Shown piece after piece: positions 35,393 through 43,218 of a stretch of 64,000 nucleotides of DNA. The stretch is from NCBI GenBank assembly GCA_029856365.1, contig JAHQWW010000003.1, forward strand, positions 1 to 64,000. Reading direction: 5' to 3'. The stretch's first letter is position 1, and every line of letters begins with the position of its first letter. A model generated the notes under the pieces. That model was not told the DNA's origin and ran no database searches. It saw nothing but the letters and a program-made list of their open reading frames with translations. Made by a program: the position numbers and the translations under genes. The stretch is from Candidatus Hodarchaeota archaeon (GTDB taxonomy: Archaea; Asgardarchaeota; Heimdallarchaeia; Hodarchaeales; Hodarchaeaceae).

Positions 35393-36136
35393 ATGGTTCG
35401 TTTAAAAGCTGTTTACCTGATTAAAGAGGAAGGATTTGTAATATATCACCAATCATTTGGTGTAACAGAGCAGGATCAGGATATGGTAGCGTCTTTACTT
35501 ATGGCTTTGAGGAGTTTTGGAAAAGAAGCTTTAGGAGAGGGAGGATCTTTGTCCAAGGTAGACTTTGGAGAAGGGGCAGACATGATTTTAGAAGCGGGTA
35601 ACCGAATAGTTGCAATCGCGGTAGTAGTTCTCGATAAGGAACATAAAGAACGAGAGGAGTATGACATTCGTAAAGACTTATTGAAATTCGTTAGAAAAAT
35701 TGAGGAAAAATACTCAGAAGAGCTGAATGACCCCATTTTTCAAAAGAGTGCTTTTTCTGGAGTTGCAACCCAAATATATCAACATTTTTTCCGTGATAAA
35801 ATGTCTAGGATTCATCAAAACCAATTTGCAAGTATTAATGAGTACTTGAAATATCCCACAACCCTATTATTTGAAATCACTCCTCGGGGAGGTAAGCTCT
35901 ATCAATTTTATAGAGAATTTCCAAAATTCACTGAATTAATCGGAGATATCCAGAAAGAAGAATTTGATAAATTAATTGACAGTATGCAAGACAAGAATAG
36001 CATGGTTTCATTTAAAGATTGCCTTGATCTCTTTGGTGAACAGAAGATGGATCAGATTCTTGAAATATTCAAATTTTTGACAAATCGTGGAATGTTTGAA
36101 GCATATAATTTTGAACGAATAGCAATTGAGTCATAA
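35393..36136 (+). CDS. Longin-like domain protein with putative C-terminal wHTH
   Basis: VYLIKEEGFVIY...MVASLLMALRSFGKE longin pattern; C-terminal helix-rich segment ending LTNRGMF. Confidence 0.65.
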   Translation: MVRLKAVYLIKEEGFVIYHQSFGVTEQDQDMVASLLMALRSFGKEALGEGGSLSKVDFGEGADMILEAGNRIVAIAVVVLDKEHKEREEYDIRKDLLKFVRKIEEKYSEELNDPIFQKSAFSGVATQIYQHFFRDKMSRIHQNQFASINEYLKYPTTLLFEITPRGGKLYQFYREFPKFTELIGDIQKEEFDKLIDSMQDKNSMVSFKDCLDLFGEQKMDQILEIFKFLTNRGMFEAYNFERIAIES

Positions 36137-36160: not shown

Positions 36161-37015
36161 CTAGCATGTAACATCTTTCCCGCAATGAGGACATTTAATA
36201 GTTTTTTCCCTCTGGGTTCGTACAATAAATGCAGTCATCTTTCTCATTTCTTTTTGCATTGTATTGAGTTCAGTTATAATTCTCGTTTCAATACTGGTGT
36301 TAATTTGCTGATTCATCACCTCAGGAAGAGTAGAAATATTTTTAGTCAACTGTTCGGCTGCTAGTACTAATCTTTGAAGAGTTCCATCCTGTTTAGCCAA
36401 ACGTTCTGTCACAGATGTCTTTAATTCGTTGACGGATGACTCTAAGTAAATAGAGATACGATCACGCAGTGATGTCAATTCTACTTGGATTATTGCATTC
36501 ACTCGATCTCTAAGTTCAGCAACAGTGGTTAATTGATCAGTCTGATTCTCAATTAGGGCATTTAGATTACTTACAACGTTATCAAGTTTGTCTGAAATCA
36601 CTACGAAATTATTAATACTAGCTTCGAATCGGCCCTTGGTTTCTTCAGTAGATGAGTCTACCATTGTGGTGATATCATTGGATAACCTCCGCATACTCCC
36701 AACAACATCTTCCACGTAGCTAACTTTAATAAATTTCAGATCGTTCTTTGTTTCTTCAGCAGTTGTCACGAATGTCTTTTGAAAAGACCCAATGGATTCC
36801 TCAAGGTTAGAAATTACTGTAGGAAGGTTTTGGATTGAAACCTGTAAATCAGAACTGATTTTTGAAGTGTCAACTATTTGCTGGATCGTAATAAGCTTTT
36901 CATCAATACCATTTGTAAGTTGGAGGAGGTATTGTAATTCTGAGGGATCTTTAATGGTCTGTTTTAATTCCAATATCAGTTGCAATATCTCTTTAATGTC
37001 ATCTTCTAAGCCCAT
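36161..37015 (-). CDS. Long coiled-coil protein with terminal CPHC motif
   Basis: Continuous heptads; ends IKCPHCGKDVTC. Confidence 0.75.
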   Translation of the reverse strand: MGLEDDIKEILQLILELKQTIKDPSELQYLLQLTNGIDEKLITIQQIVDTSKISSDLQVSIQNLPTVISNLEESIGSFQKTFVTTAEETKNDLKFIKVSYVEDVVGSMRRLSNDITTMVDSSTEETKGRFEASINNFVVISDKLDNVVSNLNALIENQTDQLTTVAELRDRVNAIIQVELTSLRDRISIYLESSVNELKTSVTERLAKQDGTLQRLVLAAEQLTKNISTLPEVMNQQINTSIETRIITELNTMQKEMRKMTAFIVRTQREKTIKCPHCGKDVTC

Positions 37016-37183: not shown

Positions 37184-38269
37184 TTATTTCAAGCGTCTTA
37201 AAAACGTCACAAACTTGTCATTTTCTAACATTGTGTTATTTAATCGATTGATCATAATAATCGTTTCAGAGTAAATGAATTGCTTGAAATCATTCTCTGT
37301 GGCATTTTGTAAGTCTAGATAAATCTCTTTCACAACAGAAAATGAAATATTAGGTATTCTAGATTCTAGATCTCCTGTTCCGAGATTATAATTCTTTAAA
37401 ATACTGGAGGAGACACGAAGAGAGTCTTGCAGCTTTCGATTATCACCAGAGTACTCTGAAATACTCAGATAATAATTCTTTACAATATCTTGGACTTGTT
37501 CTTGTTCCAAAGATGTAAGACTTAATTCATCTTCACTAGGAAACAATCGACGGAGGTTTTGGAGTAAGCGTGCGGCGGGGGCTTCTCGTAAGAGCTTACC
37601 AATAAGATTCTTTAACTCAAAAGATGGAATCTGAATAATTTCACGTGGATTAGGGAGAGAAGATTCTGATTGAAGCTCGTAACGATGTAGCTCTTTACAT
37701 GCAGCAAAATAGTAATTAGGAAAACCCAAGTGAGACAAATTCGAATATGAGGAAAATAATTTGTCAATAGTCTCAACGATTCCCCATTTGTCCAGATATT
37801 CAGTATTTCGTAGAAATAGACCTATTTTTTCCTCTAGAGGCTTTGTTGTTTGAGGCATTCCTGAAGCTTCTGTTGGTGTTGAAATAGTAGAGTGTGCACC
37901 TAGTAATGAAGAAACTTCCAAATCGATTTTTTCTATTTTTTCTAGAATTTCCAAACCTGATTCCGGTTGTAAACGCATTTTAGAAAGAAATTCCTGGACC
38001 ATGGTTAATGTTTCAATTACATCATCATTTAGGCCATCCTCACTCCTTAAAGTTGTAACTAGTGTTGAAAGAAGCTTAATGAGTAAGAGATTCAAACCAA
38101 TGAGGAGATTGATCTTCTCCCCCATGTTACCTCGTGAAGTCCAAAAATTAAATGAGGGATACTTCTGTTTATCTTTATCAGGTGCCAAGTTCGATTGATT
38201 TCTAAGAAGTTCGTTAGAATCAGGTGAGTCTCGTGTAGATTCGAACCTTGGGTGATCATTTTCGTCCAA
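37184..38269 (-). CDS. Hypothetical alpha-helical protein in the tubulin-like cluster
   Basis: Long ORF starting 14 bp after the tubulin-like gene; no recognisable motif. Confidence 0.7.
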   Translation of the reverse strand: MDENDHPRFESTRDSPDSNELLRNQSNLAPDKDKQKYPSFNFWTSRGNMGEKINLLIGLNLLLIKLLSTLVTTLRSEDGLNDDVIETLTMVQEFLSKMRLQPESGLEILEKIEKIDLEVSSLLGAHSTISTPTEASGMPQTTKPLEEKIGLFLRNTEYLDKWGIVETIDKLFSSYSNLSHLGFPNYYFAACKELHRYELQSESSLPNPREIIQIPSFELKNLIGKLLREAPAARLLQNLRRLFPSEDELSLTSLEQEQVQDIVKNYYLSISEYSGDNRKLQDSLRVSSSILKNYNLGTGDLESRIPNISFSVVKEIYLDLQNATENDFKQFIYSETIIMINRLNNTMLENDKFVTFLRRLK

Positions 38270-38283
38270 CTTAATCCAGCACC

Positions 38284-39648
38284 TTATTCTGGTTTGATGT
38301 AGTAACCAAATAACTTCTCCAAATCATTAACCGCTGCATCTAATTCTTTCCTTGTTGTTCCTTTTGATCGTTTAAACCAATGTTGTTTCAATTCCGAGTC
38401 ACCACTATGAAGATTGATGAGTGCTTTGGCCTCCTCAAGAATATCATATAATTCTGGTATTTTTGGCAAACCAAATAATAGAAGGAGCGAGGCTCGTGTG
38501 GTATCATCATCATAGGCACAGTAAGTTGGAGAAATACTTGCACCCTTAGCTAAAAATGGTGTCAATGCCTTTTTCAAAAGTGGATCATACTCCACTCGTG
38601 CAATATTACGGGGACCACTGAGTACAGAGAAAACAGATGAAGCAGCAGGATTTGTTCCCATATTTGTCAAGCTACAGTTAGAAAGAGTGTATTCAACTGC
38701 AGTGGATAGTTGAGAGTCCATTCCTCCAATTTCTGGAAAAACGGATAAATCGTCAAACATTGCTGGTACAACAACGCTATCCAATTTCAATGCAAAGTCA
38801 CCAATATCGGTAGTAGGTAATACTTCCTTTCCGATTTCAGGTACTCCAGGAGACAACATTTCAGCAATCGATTCTAAAGCTAGAGGGTTGATTAGTTCAA
38901 CAAAAGCCTCTTCTATCTGAGCTGGATAAGCTGTTCCGTCTTGGCCGATAACAGTTGGAACACTGGAACTAACCTGCTCACTACTTAAATCAGCTAAATT
39001 CCTTCCGATTTGTCTACTCAATAAATCAACAGATTCCCCACGTTGCCAACTTAAAACCCGTTCAAGCATTGTTCTATTAGAAAGAAGAAGGATAAGATCT
39101 GGCCCCATGTTTCCTTCCTCTAGTTGGAGTCGCAATAATCTTGATAACGCCCAGACGCTATTAATCGCTTCAGAAGACTGGTTAACGAATGGTAAGACCC
39201 CAAAAACATAAATAAAAATTTTACGTTTCTCCTCTTCAGCAAAACGGTTTCTTAACAATCGTATTAAAGCAGGAGTTCCACCACATCCAGTACCTCCTCC
39301 AAAACTGGTAAAAATACAAAAACCACTGATTCCCTCGTAACCAAGCCCTTGTAACTGATTTAGTACAATATCCTGAGAATTCATAACTGCTTCATAACCC
39401 GCAGAAAATTTTCCACCTACTCCAATCTCTGCATCTGAATAAAGAAGTGTTCTCTTCTTGGAAATGGAATACTTCTTTCGTGCTTTTAACAAATCACCAC
39501 GATCAGTATTCATCACTAGATATTCTCTGATGCGCTGAGGTAACTCACCTTTTTTTGATTTGGCTAAATAACTACCTACTAAATTTGACCCACACTCACC
39601 AATACCGATTGCGAAGATTTCTGACTCTGTTCCTCCTTCAATTGACAT
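38284..39648 (-). CDS. Divergent tubulin/FtsZ superfamily GTPase (CetZ/tubulin-like)
   Basis: GIGECGSNL (T1), NTD (T2), GVGG (T3), GGGTGCG (T4 signature), VLPF, LSN and TDIGDF (T7-like). Confidence 0.9.
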   Translation of the reverse strand: MSIEGGTESEIFAIGIGECGSNLVGSYLAKSKKGELPQRIREYLVMNTDRGDLLKARKKYSISKKRTLLYSDAEIGVGGKFSAGYEAVMNSQDIVLNQLQGLGYEGISGFCIFTSFGGGTGCGGTPALIRLLRNRFAEEEKRKIFIYVFGVLPFVNQSSEAINSVWALSRLLRLQLEEGNMGPDLILLLSNRTMLERVLSWQRGESVDLLSRQIGRNLADLSSEQVSSSVPTVIGQDGTAYPAQIEEAFVELINPLALESIAEMLSPGVPEIGKEVLPTTDIGDFALKLDSVVVPAMFDDLSVFPEIGGMDSQLSTAVEYTLSNCSLTNMGTNPAASSVFSVLSGPRNIARVEYDPLLKKALTPFLAKGASISPTYCAYDDDTTRASLLLLFGLPKIPELYDILEEAKALINLHSGDSELKQHWFKRSKGTTRKELDAAVNDLEKLFGYYIKPE

Positions 39649-39699: not shown

Positions 39700-42600
39700 C
39701 TATTTTTCCAGTTTAATACCAGATTTGATTTCAATAAGTAATTTCATTACTAGAGATAAGTACGATCGAATAACCTTATTATGAGGATATGTTTCTCTGA
39801 TTTTCTTAGATATTTCTTTATACTGTCGTGAGTTCTCCTCTCTGCTCTCCGTTGGGGTGTACCGAGGACGGAACATACGAATAGCATGATGCCAATGGTT
39901 CAATTGCACTGAAACCTTTTTCCATTCTTTTCTTTGTTCATCTATTAGTGGTATTAACTCCAGAATATATCTAAGATCATGAGAATCTAAGAATTCCTCA
40001 CGAGCTTTTACTAATTTAGATAAAGGAAAAATATTCTCAGACGCTTCCTCTGTATATCTCTTGAATACTTCCTGAATGTTAGAGTAATATTCTAAATTCC
40101 CCAACTCAATCTGTAGAGCAGCATTTCGATCTTTTTCAATTTTCTTCATGATTTCAATGACGGTCCCTCGTACTGAAACTAGTTCAAGTATTGCTTGTGT
40201 TAAGCGGCTAATGTGATTTGTTGTAGCAATTTCTTGAAATTGACTCAGATATGCAAGATCAACTCGTTCGTCTTGCCGTAAGTCAATTTGGTAATGATTA
40301 AATAAATATTCAACCGCATCTTGAATTTCAGTAATATAGCGTTTTCCCATGGATCTAATTTCACGACAAGCTTTTGTATCAGTTTGCAAGCGATCAATTT
40401 CAACAAAAACGTCAGTTATTTCCAGTAATTGGACATCTTCTTGATTTTTAACTATTACTTGGCTAAATGTTTCGATATATCCCCCGACATACTCGATAAT
40501 ATTGATCCCAACTTCTTTCAAATCATTAACATTTTTCAGAACCTTTCGTGATTCCTTTACACCATGTGCTAACAGAACAGCGACGATTTCTGTGTCATAC
40601 AAAAAAATTAGCTGCCGTAATTTGTGTGCTAACCGCTCATGGGACACTTCCTCGGCTTCAAAATCTGCAATTTTTTTCTCAGCACCAAAAACCCGATCAT
40701 CAAGCGGTGTTATTTCATTTATCCGTGGAAGACTGAGTCTTAGCCAATTGTAGAGATTTTGGTGAAGTGTAGCTAAGGAATCTTTCGCCATTTGCAAACT
40801 TTCCAAGCTATAACTTTCAAAAACGTTGACTAATCTGATAATATCCTTGTGAGTTTTAATCTCAGCCATTTTCTCGTTCATAAGTTTCAGGGTTTCTTCA
40901 AAAAAGATTGTATACTGGCTAGGAAGTTTAGAATAGTCCTGTATATGAGAGGATATTTCCCGTTCCATTTGTTCAGCCAATGTGGAAGCTTTTCGTTCAA
41001 CAAAAGCTCTTAATTGCCAAAATTCGGTTAAAGCTTCAGAATAATCAAGGTCATCAATTTCTCTATCAGTAGAATAGATTAAACTGCTTTTTCGAGATTT
41101 TAATAGCCTAAAAAGTCTTCTATCGACTCCCTCGAGATTTGTTATCTGCTTTTTTAATTCAATAAGAATTTCATTTTTATTTTCTTCAATCGTTTCAAGG
41201 AAAGAAATGTATTCTTTAATTACAGCCTCAATATTTCCTGATTCTGAATATTCATCAATTAAATCCACGATTTTACTGCGTTTTTCTCGTAGGTCAAATC
41301 GTGTCTCTATAGGAATTAATGGAAATGGAATCGACTTTAAATTCTCACGGATCCGTGAGGAAATCTTGTACTTCCAAACTGGAATCTTTTCATACTCATC
41401 TAAAAGCTCTTGGGTACTTTTTTGGGCAACAGCACTAGCCTCATCTCGGAATGATTTCAAATCGTCAACTGCAAGAATTGGAACATGAACCTTTAATTTA
41501 GGGGGAATTGTTTCTAGATTTATCAGTTGATTATAAATCGGATGTATTTCATTATCTATTTTATTCCAAAGTTCAGTTTTAATATTTGTATTAAGTCTAT
41601 GAAGTCTTTCGATTTCATGAACTAAGTCACGAATATCTATTTCTTCCACAATTTTATGTTTTCTTTGATATTCGATTTGATCTTTTAGGTCTTCAGATAG
41701 AATATCCCGTAAACTTTCACGTGAATCATAGAGATTCAACAAATTTTGTCTGAGACTTTGTTGAGCTGGTTTAGAAAAATAAGCAACCAGTCGAGTCTCC
41801 CAATCCTTTATTTCTCGAGCCTTACTACTTAATTCACTGGGTGATAAAGCCTCAAAATCGCGAATAATCGGTATTTGAGGCCCCTCACTTAAATTTATAA
41901 CTTCTTGGATGTGAGGATTTTCTAGTAATCTGAAGAAATAGTTTTGACACTCTTCAGCTAGAGCTGACTTCAATTCGTGATATCTTTTTGCGAGTTCTAC
42001 CCATTCCTGAAGGTCTCTTGTTTTCGCTGCCTCTTTTTCAATTGCTCGTATATCCTTAGTGAAATCAGATGGAACTGGTATCTTCATTGCACGAATAGCT
42101 TTAGAAGCGTTTATTAGTTCTGATGTACTGATCAGCTTCTTTGTAACAATAATTTGTTGTTGACGCCAAGAACGGATTTTCTCAATATCTTGGATTATAG
42201 TGGGTATATTTGTAGATGAAACATCTGTTTCTGGAACTGGTGAAAAAGAAGATTCCAGTCCTTCTCTTCCTGTAATCTGTATAATACGTCCGATTTGATC
42301 CTCAGTTTCTGTTTTTAATGAAATTTCATAAGTTCTTAGAGCATTTACGAATTCATTACTCAATGAATTCAATCTCTTTTCCAATGTGATGAGAGTTTCT
42401 ACTGAAGTTGTTTTTTCCGTACTGGCTTGAATATCTTGTATTTCCTCCTTCAGTACATCAATTTTTGCCCAAAGATCCAAACCAATTGAGGCTACTGTAT
42501 CGATATGTTGTTGTAACTCAGAAGACATTTGAATTATTGCCAGTTGGATTTTACCTTCTGTACCTTTTCTGCGCTGCTTTAAATATGCGTTTTCCGCTTC

Positions 42601-43218
42601 CAACTGACTATAGACTTCTAGTAAATCAGGAATAGTCATCACATGAATGCTTGTTTTTGTTGTTTGATTCGTTATTCGAATCTTTTCTTCATCAAAATTA
42701 ACAAATTTTCCATAAAGTTCGATAATCTCTCGATTAAACAATAATATAGATACATTTTTTCCTCTTAGAACCTCTGAAATCTGATTATAGGTTCTAAGCA
42801 CATTTGAACTAAATTTCACAATCTCTTTGATGTTAAAACTGGGAATTTGTAGTTTACGAATGGTTTCTGTCTCTTGGGGGATAAATTTGGCAATTTCTTT
42901 GATGTTATTTGCCAAGTCAAAGTAAATCTTACGATATCCAACTAAAAGGGTATTTAGTAAATCCTCAGATAATTTACCAAATTTCTCTTTATTTTGAGTA
43001 AGGGATCTTTTCATTCCCCTCTTTTTAAAGAATCCTGCTGTAGGCAAGTCTTTTTCCAATTTTTCGATTTCTATCACTAATTTTTGTGCTTCGTTTAAAG
43101 TGGAGACAGCTTGCACTGTTGGGTCAATTGATCGTAATTCAGTCACTAAATCTCGAATCTTATGAAGAACTTCCTTTGAAAGGAGTTCTCCTGCTTCCGA
43201 TGTCATATTGGCTGGCAT
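39700..43218 (-). CDS. 1172-aa all-helical repeat / coiled-coil protein
   Basis: E/K/L/I-rich amphipathic helices throughout; no Walker motifs or TM helix seen. Confidence 0.8.
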   Translation of the reverse strand: MPANMTSEAGELLSKEVLHKIRDLVTELRSIDPTVQAVSTLNEAQKLVIEIEKLEKDLPTAGFFKKRGMKRSLTQNKEKFGKLSEDLLNTLLVGYRKIYFDLANNIKEIAKFIPQETETIRKLQIPSFNIKEIVKFSSNVLRTYNQISEVLRGKNVSILLFNREIIELYGKFVNFDEEKIRITNQTTKTSIHVMTIPDLLEVYSQLEAENAYLKQRRKGTEGKIQLAIIQMSSELQQHIDTVASIGLDLWAKIDVLKEEIQDIQASTEKTTSVETLITLEKRLNSLSNEFVNALRTYEISLKTETEDQIGRIIQITGREGLESSFSPVPETDVSSTNIPTIIQDIEKIRSWRQQQIIVTKKLISTSELINASKAIRAMKIPVPSDFTKDIRAIEKEAAKTRDLQEWVELAKRYHELKSALAEECQNYFFRLLENPHIQEVINLSEGPQIPIIRDFEALSPSELSSKAREIKDWETRLVAYFSKPAQQSLRQNLLNLYDSRESLRDILSEDLKDQIEYQRKHKIVEEIDIRDLVHEIERLHRLNTNIKTELWNKIDNEIHPIYNQLINLETIPPKLKVHVPILAVDDLKSFRDEASAVAQKSTQELLDEYEKIPVWKYKISSRIRENLKSIPFPLIPIETRFDLREKRSKIVDLIDEYSESGNIEAVIKEYISFLETIEENKNEILIELKKQITNLEGVDRRLFRLLKSRKSSLIYSTDREIDDLDYSEALTEFWQLRAFVERKASTLAEQMEREISSHIQDYSKLPSQYTIFFEETLKLMNEKMAEIKTHKDIIRLVNVFESYSLESLQMAKDSLATLHQNLYNWLRLSLPRINEITPLDDRVFGAEKKIADFEAEEVSHERLAHKLRQLIFLYDTEIVAVLLAHGVKESRKVLKNVNDLKEVGINIIEYVGGYIETFSQVIVKNQEDVQLLEITDVFVEIDRLQTDTKACREIRSMGKRYITEIQDAVEYLFNHYQIDLRQDERVDLAYLSQFQEIATTNHISRLTQAILELVSVRGTVIEIMKKIEKDRNAALQIELGNLEYYSNIQEVFKRYTEEASENIFPLSKLVKAREEFLDSHDLRYILELIPLIDEQRKEWKKVSVQLNHWHHAIRMFRPRYTPTESREENSRQYKEISKKIRETYPHNKVIRSYLSLVMKLLIEIKSGIKLEK

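Follow-up and report, generated by a model that had tools for sequence, protein, structure and literature searches.

An Asg.Tub gene of the tubulin/FtsZ superfamily in a Hodarchaeota contig, its conserved helical gene neighbours and a proposed cytoskeletal role

We analysed a 64,000-nucleotide stretch of contig JAHQWW010000003.1 from a Candidatus Hodarchaeota archaeon (assembly GCA_029856365.1, positions 1 to 64,000 of the forward strand; hereafter the window) and, within it, the gene for a tubulin-like protein of 454 residues that belongs to the Asg.Tub family. The window, with a G+C content of ~35%, carries Asgard-typical genes that include those for Cdc48 and a RING-finger protein, and it comes from a genome whose completeness is 84%. 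The Asg.Tub gene is an open reading frame (ORF) at 38284-39648 on the minus strand whose translation is free of internal stops, and its nearest loci, at 96% protein identity, lie in metagenome-assembled genomes (MAGs) titled Candidatus Heimdallarchaeota or Hodarchaeota. Pfam matched the Tubulin/FtsZ GTPase domain (PF00091) to residues 10-171 (E 2.1e-17) and nothing to the C-terminal half. We mapped the following features on the gene:

38284..39648, minus strand: Asg.Tub gene, tubulin/FtsZ-superfamily GTPase of 454 residues (ORF, Pfam, homologues, AlphaFold model)
39136..39621, minus strand: N-terminal GTP-binding domain, residues 10-171, with loops T1-T5 (Pfam; same span in the whole-genome search)
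39580..39606, minus strand: T1 loop GIGECGSNL, residues 15-23, with the family-specific Glu18 (string check, 31-member alignment)
39280..39300, minus strand: T4 signature GGGTGCG, residues 117-123, with the family-specific Cys122 (117/120 homologues)
38929..39039, minus strand: variable, acidic, predicted mostly disordered insertion between H6 and H7, residues 204-240 (model confidence, family alignment)
38794..38817, minus strand: T7 loop and start of H8, PTTDIGDF, residues 278-285, with the catalytic-type acidic residues D281 and D284 (invariance; precedes model helix 282-288)
38299..38457, minus strand: predicted H11 (398-413), H11' loop/helix (414-432) and H12 (433-450) (model, alignments)

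Asg.Tub is an Asgard-specific, CetZ-related branch of the tubulin/FtsZ superfamily. It was named by Santana-Molina, del Saz-Navarro and Devos in 2023 (Front Microbiol, PMC9871819) as a 'novel CetZ-like group in Asgardarchaeota', from four sequences that were treated phylogenetically only. Probably the same group serves as an outgroup in bioRxiv 10.64898/2026.02.15.705738, under the name 'CetZ-related Asgard archaeal clade'. Searching 5.8 billion proteins, we found more than 120 full-length homologues, and all those with names came from Asgard MAGs, with the labels Hod-, Heimdall-, Thor-, Hermod-, Loki- or Prometh-archaeota; their annotations read "hypothetical" and, twice, "Tubulin-like protein CetZ". 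One homologue, P0079, is OLS26264.1, which is among the four sequences of the published Asg.Tub-C alignment (the model of which covers about residues 219-454) and shares 56% identity with the protein here (E 6e-159). Another published sequence, PWI48967.1, contains the same TTDIGDFALKL string as our protein. A full-length alignment with P0079 and 29 others had a gap-poor C-terminal half with 40+ invariant positions in that half. In a library clustered at 50%, three representatives matched below 1e-30, one at 1e-21 and the remainder above 1e-10, which marks the family as isolated. In a maximum-likelihood (ML) tree, the Asg.Tub rows, including the protein here and P0079, were monophyletic with 100/99 support (99/96 with long rows removed); by this tree and by its identity to P0079, the protein groups with the founding sequences, and CetZ, tubulin and FtsZ fall outside. 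The gene is real, intact and conserved, and it is a further member of a family already known, not the discovery of a new one. Relative to the 2023 description, the family now extends to more than 120 clusters and to 124 of 399 sampled Asgard genomes, and we add a predicted structure, a Glu/Cys signature, a fixed order of three genes and, in Hodarchaeales, a second module with a paralogue.

All motifs quoted in the preliminary description of this gene are present in the 454-residue ORF, and they turned out to be signatures of the whole family of more than 120 members rather than quirks of a single gene. Among the ~120 full-length homologues, GGGTGCG occurred in 117, PTTD[LI][AG]D in 116 and GxGE[CA]G[SC]N[LI] in nearly all; because they are near-universal, the motifs are not due to chance. 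The Cys in T4 had been called unusual, and the counts agree. In the largest stored alignment (file 40) of the 2023 superfamily data set, from which our string counts were taken, GGGTGCG occurred 3-5 times, compared with 155 times for GGGTGSG and 624 times for GGGTGTG, and the occurrences displayed were Asg.Tub rows without exception. For T1, GECG occurred 4-5 times, GQCG 84 times and GQAG 30 times. On these counts in the homologues and in the 2023 data, the T1 Glu (GxGECGSN) and the T4 Cys (GGGTGCG) are nearly diagnostic markers of Asg.Tub. Both are also present in P0126 and P0137, the closest unnamed relatives (GIGEGGGNL or GIGEGGCRL, plus AGGTGCG).

Across 31 diverse aligned members, loops T1-T6 were invariant or nearly so. 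Glu18 was invariant, as were the T7 residues D281 and D284; positions that were invariant or nearly so included G15, G17, E18, G20, N22, N47, T48, G76 and G78, and further along G117-G123, P153, N163, N191, F249 and N254, of which F249/N254 form the H7 pair. In the C-terminal part, the invariant positions were E399, A407, L410, H414, S418, W424, F425, K429, G430, L446 and F447. The other loops read MNTDRGDL (T2), GVGGKF (T3) and GVLPF..QSSEA.N. (T5), and T2, T3, T5 and T7 are of the CetZ/FtsZ type, not the tubulin type.

We compared the family with Haloferax volcanii CetZ1 (4B46) and CetZ2 (4B45) and Methanothrix thermophila CetZ (3ZID), and with the tubulins OdinTubulin (7EVB), AtubA/B (9F6T) and beta-tubulin (4FFB). 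An Asg.Tub profile searched against the PDB sequences matched CetZ1 at 8e-14, Methanothrix CetZ at 1e-8, CetZ2 at 3e-8, beta-tubulin at 2e-6 and OdinTubulin at 3e-6, with FtsZ outside the best 60 matches. With hhalign, the CetZ set gave 99.7% (E 4.6e-26; 345 columns, residues 11-407), nine Asgard tubulins gave 97% (E 9e-11; 133 columns) and nine Asgard FtsZ proteins gave 96% (E 3.6e-9; 219 columns); the CetZ set had been verified against the PDB (matching 4B46 at 1e-143), and the Asgard tubulins were drawn from genomes. By sequence profile, CetZ is thus the closest family, ahead of tubulin and then FtsZ. The Pfam model Tubulin_C (PF03953) gave no match in the 31 Asg.Tub members even at E 10, and the same model detected Asgard tubulins at E 1e-12 to 4e-28. 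No Asg.Tub member matched FtsZ_C (PF12327), and the FtsZ equivalog model TIGR00065 scored 31.9 bits on the protein here, against a cut-off of 295.2.

Like CetZ, Asg.Tub has a Cys in T1, NT(D) in T2, LPF in T5 and TD.GDF in T7, together with the closest profile and the same predicted fold including H11 (Z 35.5, root-mean-square deviation (rmsd) 2.6). Unlike CetZ, it carries Glu for Gln in T1 (GECG) and Cys for Ser in T4 (GGGTGCG); in the CetZ set Q10 is invariant and S113 nearly invariant, and the CetZ forms GQ(A/C)G in T1 and GGGTGSG in T4 are not those of Asg.Tub. It also differs from CetZ in an H6-H7 insertion of ~35 residues, in an extra conserved H11' segment (LHSG..WF.RSKG) and an H12 that the model packs against the body, in occurring in Asgard archaea and not Euryarchaeota, in an unrelated gene neighbourhood and in a position outside the CetZ grade of the ML tree that is not significant. 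With tubulins it shares the T1 Cys and a full-length structural match to the model that includes H11'-H12 (Z 36-37 over ~360 residues, to model residue 452-454). Unlike them, however, it shows only 13-19% identity, a profile match confined to T3-T5, no Tubulin_C match, no acidic tail and a T3 of GVGGKF, not of the GAGNNW type; the nine Asgard tubulins make up a separate 100/100 clade, with a stem of 2.4-2.6, to which the Asg.Tub protein does not belong. FtsZ has in common with it the superfamily fold (Z 29.2), an NTD-type T2 and a DxxD-type T7, but the T1 of Asg.Tub is not GGGGxNA, H11-H12 are present, the C-terminal linker and peptide are absent, TIGR00065 stays below its cut-off with no FtsZ_C match, and the same genome has a separate canonical FtsZ.

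The preliminary description had read the protein as a mosaic of tubulin and FtsZ features. The mosaic is real, but it is largely the CetZ mosaic: it is typical of CetZ-like proteins, and CetZ is far the closest by profile. The T1 loop, described as closer to tubulin than to FtsZ, does stand apart from FtsZ, although CetZ (GQCGN/GQAGG) has in common with it the Cys and, at position 4, an amide or acidic residue. Likewise, the two acidic residues noticed in the T7-like TTDIGDF are invariant, but the string is essentially that of Methanothrix-type CetZ (VTDLGDF).

An AlphaFold2 model built from a 64-sequence alignment reached a predicted local distance difference test (pLDDT) score of 86 and a predicted template-modelling (pTM) score of 0.86, with only residues 1-7 and 223-241 below a pLDDT of 50. 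In Foldseek, the E-values of OdinTubulin, gamma-/beta-tubulin, AtubB and the three CetZ structures differed by no more than a factor of ten. The DALI-like comparison gave Z 37.3 for OdinTubulin (362 aligned residues, rmsd 2.9, model 7-454), 35.9 for beta-tubulin (361, 3.2, model to 452), 35.7 for BtubA (351, 3.2, model 8-452), 35.5 for CetZ2 (327, 2.6, model 9-416), 34.3 for Methanothrix CetZ (318, 2.6, model to 421), 29.2 for FtsZ (301, 3.2, model to 395) and 27-29 for TubZ (298-349, 3.4-4.2, model to 414-418). In the predicted core fold, tubulin and CetZ are tied (Z about 36). The insertion seen after LSNRTM (LLSNRTM is residues 188-194) is real and lies between H6 and H7, but it is about 35-40 residues long and not about 50: an extra predicted helix (205-214) is followed by a variable acidic disordered loop before H7, 37 residues in all here. 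Among family members its length varies from 24 to 43 residues and its net charge from 0 to -10. The pLDDT over residues 205-245 was 37-62, and the core of the insertion, 223-241, was predicted to be disordered.

The C-terminal helices are modelled at 398-413, 419-429 and 433-450 with pLDDT 89-95 (about 90 over residues 400-450); the corresponding strings are PELYDILEEAKALI... from residue 398 and RKELDAAVNDLEKLF at 433-447. Only tubulins superposed H11'-H12 on the last two helices (419-429, 433-450), their alignments reaching chain residue 420-437, and the outer-surface helices H11, H11' and H12 of tubulins all have counterparts in the predicted model. For a predicted model, this supports the expectation, to be checked by structure prediction with Foldseek and DALI, that the C-terminal extension would pack as in tubulin, except that the two-helix extension of the preliminary description becomes three helices, with the tubulin placement falling on H11'-H12. 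What we say of H11 in CetZ rests on the structural alignments made here. The chemistry of this surface is a different matter. The earlier proposal of a tubulin-like outer surface did not hold in this respect: there is no acidic E-hook, only 2-22 residues follow H12 in the family alignment, without an acidic tail, and the H11' segment, conserved as LHSG.S.LK..WF.RSKG across Asg.Tub, carries a basic loop (WF.RSKG) whose net charge ranges from 0 to +5 and is positive in 30 of the 31 members. The last 75 residues alone matched no tubulin or CetZ among the PDB sequences, and the tubulin-like WF..G...EL..A..D/N.L...Y pattern was seen in multiple alignments and sub-threshold HMMER segments only; for that reason we regard the pattern as a lead, not a result. 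In one such sub-threshold segment, the unmodelled tail of Methanothrix CetZ aligned weakly with the H12-like sequence of Asg.Tub, which suggests that an H12-type C-terminal helix may be ancestral to CetZ-like proteins too.

The phylogenetic position of the family was assessed with an ML tree of 53 sequences (LG+C20+F+G4 with posterior mean site frequencies (PMSF), rooted on FtsZ). The nearest relatives of Asg.Tub in the tree were P0126/P0137 and an unnamed GGGTGNG group. The latter (P0135, P0143, P0149, P0155 and P0162, all metagenomic) forms a 100/99 clade beside Asg.Tub and has a C-terminal ...IR(N/D)NL(D/E).YL helix; the string GGGTGNG has zero occurrences in the 2023 superfamily data set. 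Asg.Tub and these relatives were sister to the tubulins with 95/95 support, rising to 100/100 after removal of five long rows, and CetZ formed a basal grade. On this topology, Asg.Tub would be a survivor of the step from CetZ-like proteins to tubulin, with H11'-H12 already present. That only tubulins align structurally with residues 419-452 of the predicted model speaks for it, as do the higher rank of tubulins over FtsZ among the PDB profile matches and a published multiple sequence alignment that puts G430, E435-L436 and the final Y on the tubulin GEGM..EF...Y block. Santana-Molina et al. also recovered an intermediate position, but they judged the group more likely to be CetZ-like (PMC9871819). 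However, an approximately unbiased (AU) test did not reject a clade of Asg.Tub, its relatives and CetZ, a grouping chosen after a quick tree, either with all rows (log-likelihood difference 7.0, p 0.227) or with the long rows removed (2.5, p 0.321). The tubulin stem is very long, at 2.4-2.6 substitutions per site, and eukaryotic tubulins and artubulins lie outside the tree set; the profile match to CetZ exceeds that to tubulin by 15 orders of magnitude, Tubulin_C matched 0 of 31 members, the T2, T3, T5 and T7 loops are CetZ- or FtsZ-like, and the C-terminal 75 residues alone retrieve no tubulin. Taking both sides together, we consider a sister relationship to tubulin doubtful, and compatible in any case with the filament mechanism proposed below. 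The relevance to the FtsZ-to-tubulin transition claimed earlier is accordingly possible, with the ML tree nearer tubulin, but a CetZ-sister position survives the AU tests.

The genes around Asg.Tub in the window are as follows:

39700..43218, minus strand: upstream giant all-helical protein, 1172 residues (universal Asg.Tub neighbour)
37184..38269, minus strand: downstream partner, 361 residues, with a compact helical C-terminal domain (146-361) (model, loci comparison)
36161-37015, minus strand: coiled-coil protein, 284 residues, ending KCPHCGKDVTC (Hodarchaeales loci L010-L024 only)
35393-36136, plus strand: convergent gene, 247 residues (Hodarchaeales loci L010-L024 only)

Gaps of 51 nucleotides (giant gene to Asg.Tub) and 14 nucleotides (Asg.Tub to the 361-residue gene) separate the first two of these from Asg.Tub. 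Coiled-coil or helical unknown neighbours beside Asg.Tub had been noted by Santana-Molina et al. (PMC9871819). We surveyed synteny at 80 species-representative loci, confirming homology by BLASTP, and found the order giant protein, Asg.Tub, ~360-residue partner at almost all of them where the contig allows, with genes 5-50 nucleotides apart or overlapping. Giant-protein homologues directly upstream have 871-1185 residues, and homologues of ~300-380 residues lie directly downstream in Hodarchaeales and in Thor-, Sif-, Borr- and Baldr-labelled loci; this order has been kept despite divergence of the partners to 20-27% identity. The 15 Hodarchaeales loci read helical protein (1170-1185 residues), Asg.Tub, ~360-residue partner, ~285-residue coiled-coil protein and convergent gene of ~247 residues. 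Thor-type loci have a divergent WD40 propeller gene and a 208-residue gene, followed by a ~895-residue helical protein, Asg.Tub and a ~355-residue partner, and Sif-, Borr- and Baldr-labelled loci retain the three-gene core. Because they are kept only in the Hodarchaeales loci L010-L024 and not at Thor-type loci, the 284-residue and 247-residue genes are lineage-specific additions outside the core module.

The WD40 beta-propeller gene of the Thor-type loci (~630 residues; for example L004:3185-5065, minus strand) always runs divergently from the operon, in ~45 loci (L026-L082), and the conserved 208-residue gene lies beyond it; both are absent from the Hodarchaeales locus.

The same genome encodes a second Asg.Tub paralogue on contig C12 (L002:1474-2808, plus strand), of 444 residues and 55% identity to the first, with the motifs GIGECGSNL and GGGTGCG and a T7 of TTDLADY. 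It has a giant-protein homologue upstream (L002:1-1461) and no ~360-residue partner downstream. This second module, consisting of a 311-residue gene, a ~1140-residue gene and Asg.Tub, was also found at six other Hodarchaeales loci. At L007:9377-12905, on the complete chromosome of Heimdallarchaeota bin6 (CP070695.1), it adjoins two genes for Arf/Rag-type small GTPases (737 and 300 residues) and lies near a roadblock-like gene.

A gene that is always paired with dedicated partner genes could encode a filament of the TubZ/PhuZ kind that segregates DNA or cargo, with the neighbours as adaptors. In type III partition systems, tubZ is paired with tubR, and TubZ chains do match the predicted fold. 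Yet the locus is chromosomal and single-copy, is vertically conserved across Asgard classes and lies away from any plasmid or viral genes; searches of the two core partners revealed no DNA-binding domain, and the protein is nearer CetZ and tubulin than TubZ in both sequence and fold. We regard a segregation filament as highly improbable.

Asg.Tub was present in 124 of the 399 sampled Asgard genomes, and its distribution was uneven. It occurred in 20 of 21 genomes of the window's genus and in 75 of 89 genomes of three families that are not itemised here, including the Thor-type family f31 (most of those matches), and in none of the genomes of the largest family, f20 (0/135), or of the Heimdallarchaeial family f4 (0/31). 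Genuine tubulins, recognised by Tubulin_C, were found in 8 of the 399 genomes (families f6, f19, f26 and f27), compared with a published figure of "~1%" of Asgard genomes (PMC13394414). Tubulin and Asg.Tub never occurred in the same genome family; as the numbers are small and the genomes related, this mutual exclusion is only a pattern to watch.

Superfamily repertoires in ten genomes bear on whether Asg.Tub might be a division protein that replaces a second FtsZ missing in this lineage. Most FtsZ-dividing archaea have FtsZ1 and FtsZ2 (PMC9871819), and in the window's genus this genome and two near-complete ones have a single canonical FtsZ with one or two Asg.Tub genes, as such a substitution would predict. 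On the other hand, Thor-type genomes have two FtsZ genes and one Asg.Tub, f28 genomes likewise keep Asg.Tub beside two canonical FtsZ genes, and in Heimdall family f4 a single FtsZ occurs with no Asg.Tub at all. No sepF or other division gene lies adjacent, and Asg.Tub has no FtsZ C-terminal peptide. Such lineage-specific repertoires argue against a simple substitute for a lost FtsZ, and a division role appears improbable. The candidate of an FtsZ2 substitute was judged unlikely after this comparison. Genomes of f20 have two FtsZ only. Those of f4, with one canonical FtsZ only, carry instead a degenerate tubulin-superfamily protein of 379 residues (T1 AVGDAACII, T4 SGGGTGSAGS; PF00091 at E about 1e-7), which in genome G015 (L090:5960-7099, plus strand) lies directly downstream of the gene for a 436-residue multi-pass membrane protein (L090:4639-5949, plus strand).

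We propose that Asg.Tub is likely to form GTP-dependent filaments that work with co-encoded partners in cell shape, membrane or cell organisation rather than in a division ring. The mechanism is suggested by analogy with CetZ1 and by the complete catalytic conservation; GTP-dependent polymer formation by CetZ1 requires its T4, T7 and C-terminal tail (bioRxiv 10.1101/2024.04.08.588506). The N-terminal domain would bind GTP through loops T1-T6, and subunits would stack head to tail into protofilaments, so that the T7 loop (D281, D284) of one subunit would enter the nucleotide pocket of the next, bring about hydrolysis and allow the filament to turn over. The conserved C-terminal helices (H11, the basic WF.RSKG loop and H12) would lie on the outer face of the filament, where the H11-H11'-H12 face may be the docking site for the upstream giant helical protein and the downstream ~360-residue partner. 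Together these would make up a cytoskeletal module for cell shape or for membrane or cell organisation, not a division ring. An active homopolymerising GTPase had been proposed earlier, and with loops T1-T6, the H7 Phe/Asn pair and D281/D284 conserved, a GTPase activated by polymerisation is the natural reading of the sequence. Our data establish the family membership, the predicted fold, the conserved catalytic motifs, the synteny and the distribution. We infer GTP binding and hydrolysis, polymerisation, partner binding and the cellular role from these features; the roles of the helical partners are guesses.

A bolder version, which we hold to be unlikely, would have Asg.Tub, P0126/P0137 and the GGGTGNG group jointly as the nearest extant sister lineage to the whole tubulin clade. 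Its CetZ-like core would by then have gained the H11'-H12 outer face of tubulin, and the giant helical neighbour would be a reader of that face resembling a microtubule-associated protein (MAP).

Several observations weigh against the proposed filament module. Two substitutions beside the phosphates, Glu18 (T1) and Cys122 (T4), are unusual, and Asg.Tub has no FtsZ-type C-terminal peptide or acidic tail. All structural statements rest on a predicted model, and in the literature searched there was no structural, biochemical or cellular study of any Asg.Tub member. As for the partners, the 361-residue protein gave nothing in the PDB at E <= 0.001 with Foldseek, and its profile gave nothing below E 0.16 against the PDB sequences; the 1172-residue protein matched no Pfam or NCBIfam family, and its profile returned chance-level helical matches only from the PDB sequences. 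The five cluster proteins have no convincing transmembrane segment, and Asg.Tub has no membrane anchor. The 361-residue protein does have one Leu-rich stretch (53-71), which is not conserved in Thor-type partners; its model has a pLDDT above 90 over residues 146-361. A complex prediction for Asg.Tub with partner residues 140-361 scored 0.00 in a run without controls and counts neither way.

The literature already has a name for the family, and the value of the present finding itself is confirmatory. Asg.Tub is found in about a third of Asgard genomes, compared with about 1-2% for true tubulins, and is nearly universal in Thorarchaeia-type families and in the window's Hodarchaeales genus. The combination of a CetZ-like core with predicted tubulin-like C-terminal helices offers a test case for the origin of the outer surface of tubulin, the platform for motors and MAPs. 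If Asg.Tub were indeed sister to tubulin, it would preserve, in a widespread form open to experiment, a stage on the way from CetZ-type filaments to microtubule-type tubulin. Should it assemble into filaments with the two partners dedicated to it, the module would be a major and so far unstudied cytoskeletal system among the prokaryotes most closely related to eukaryotes.

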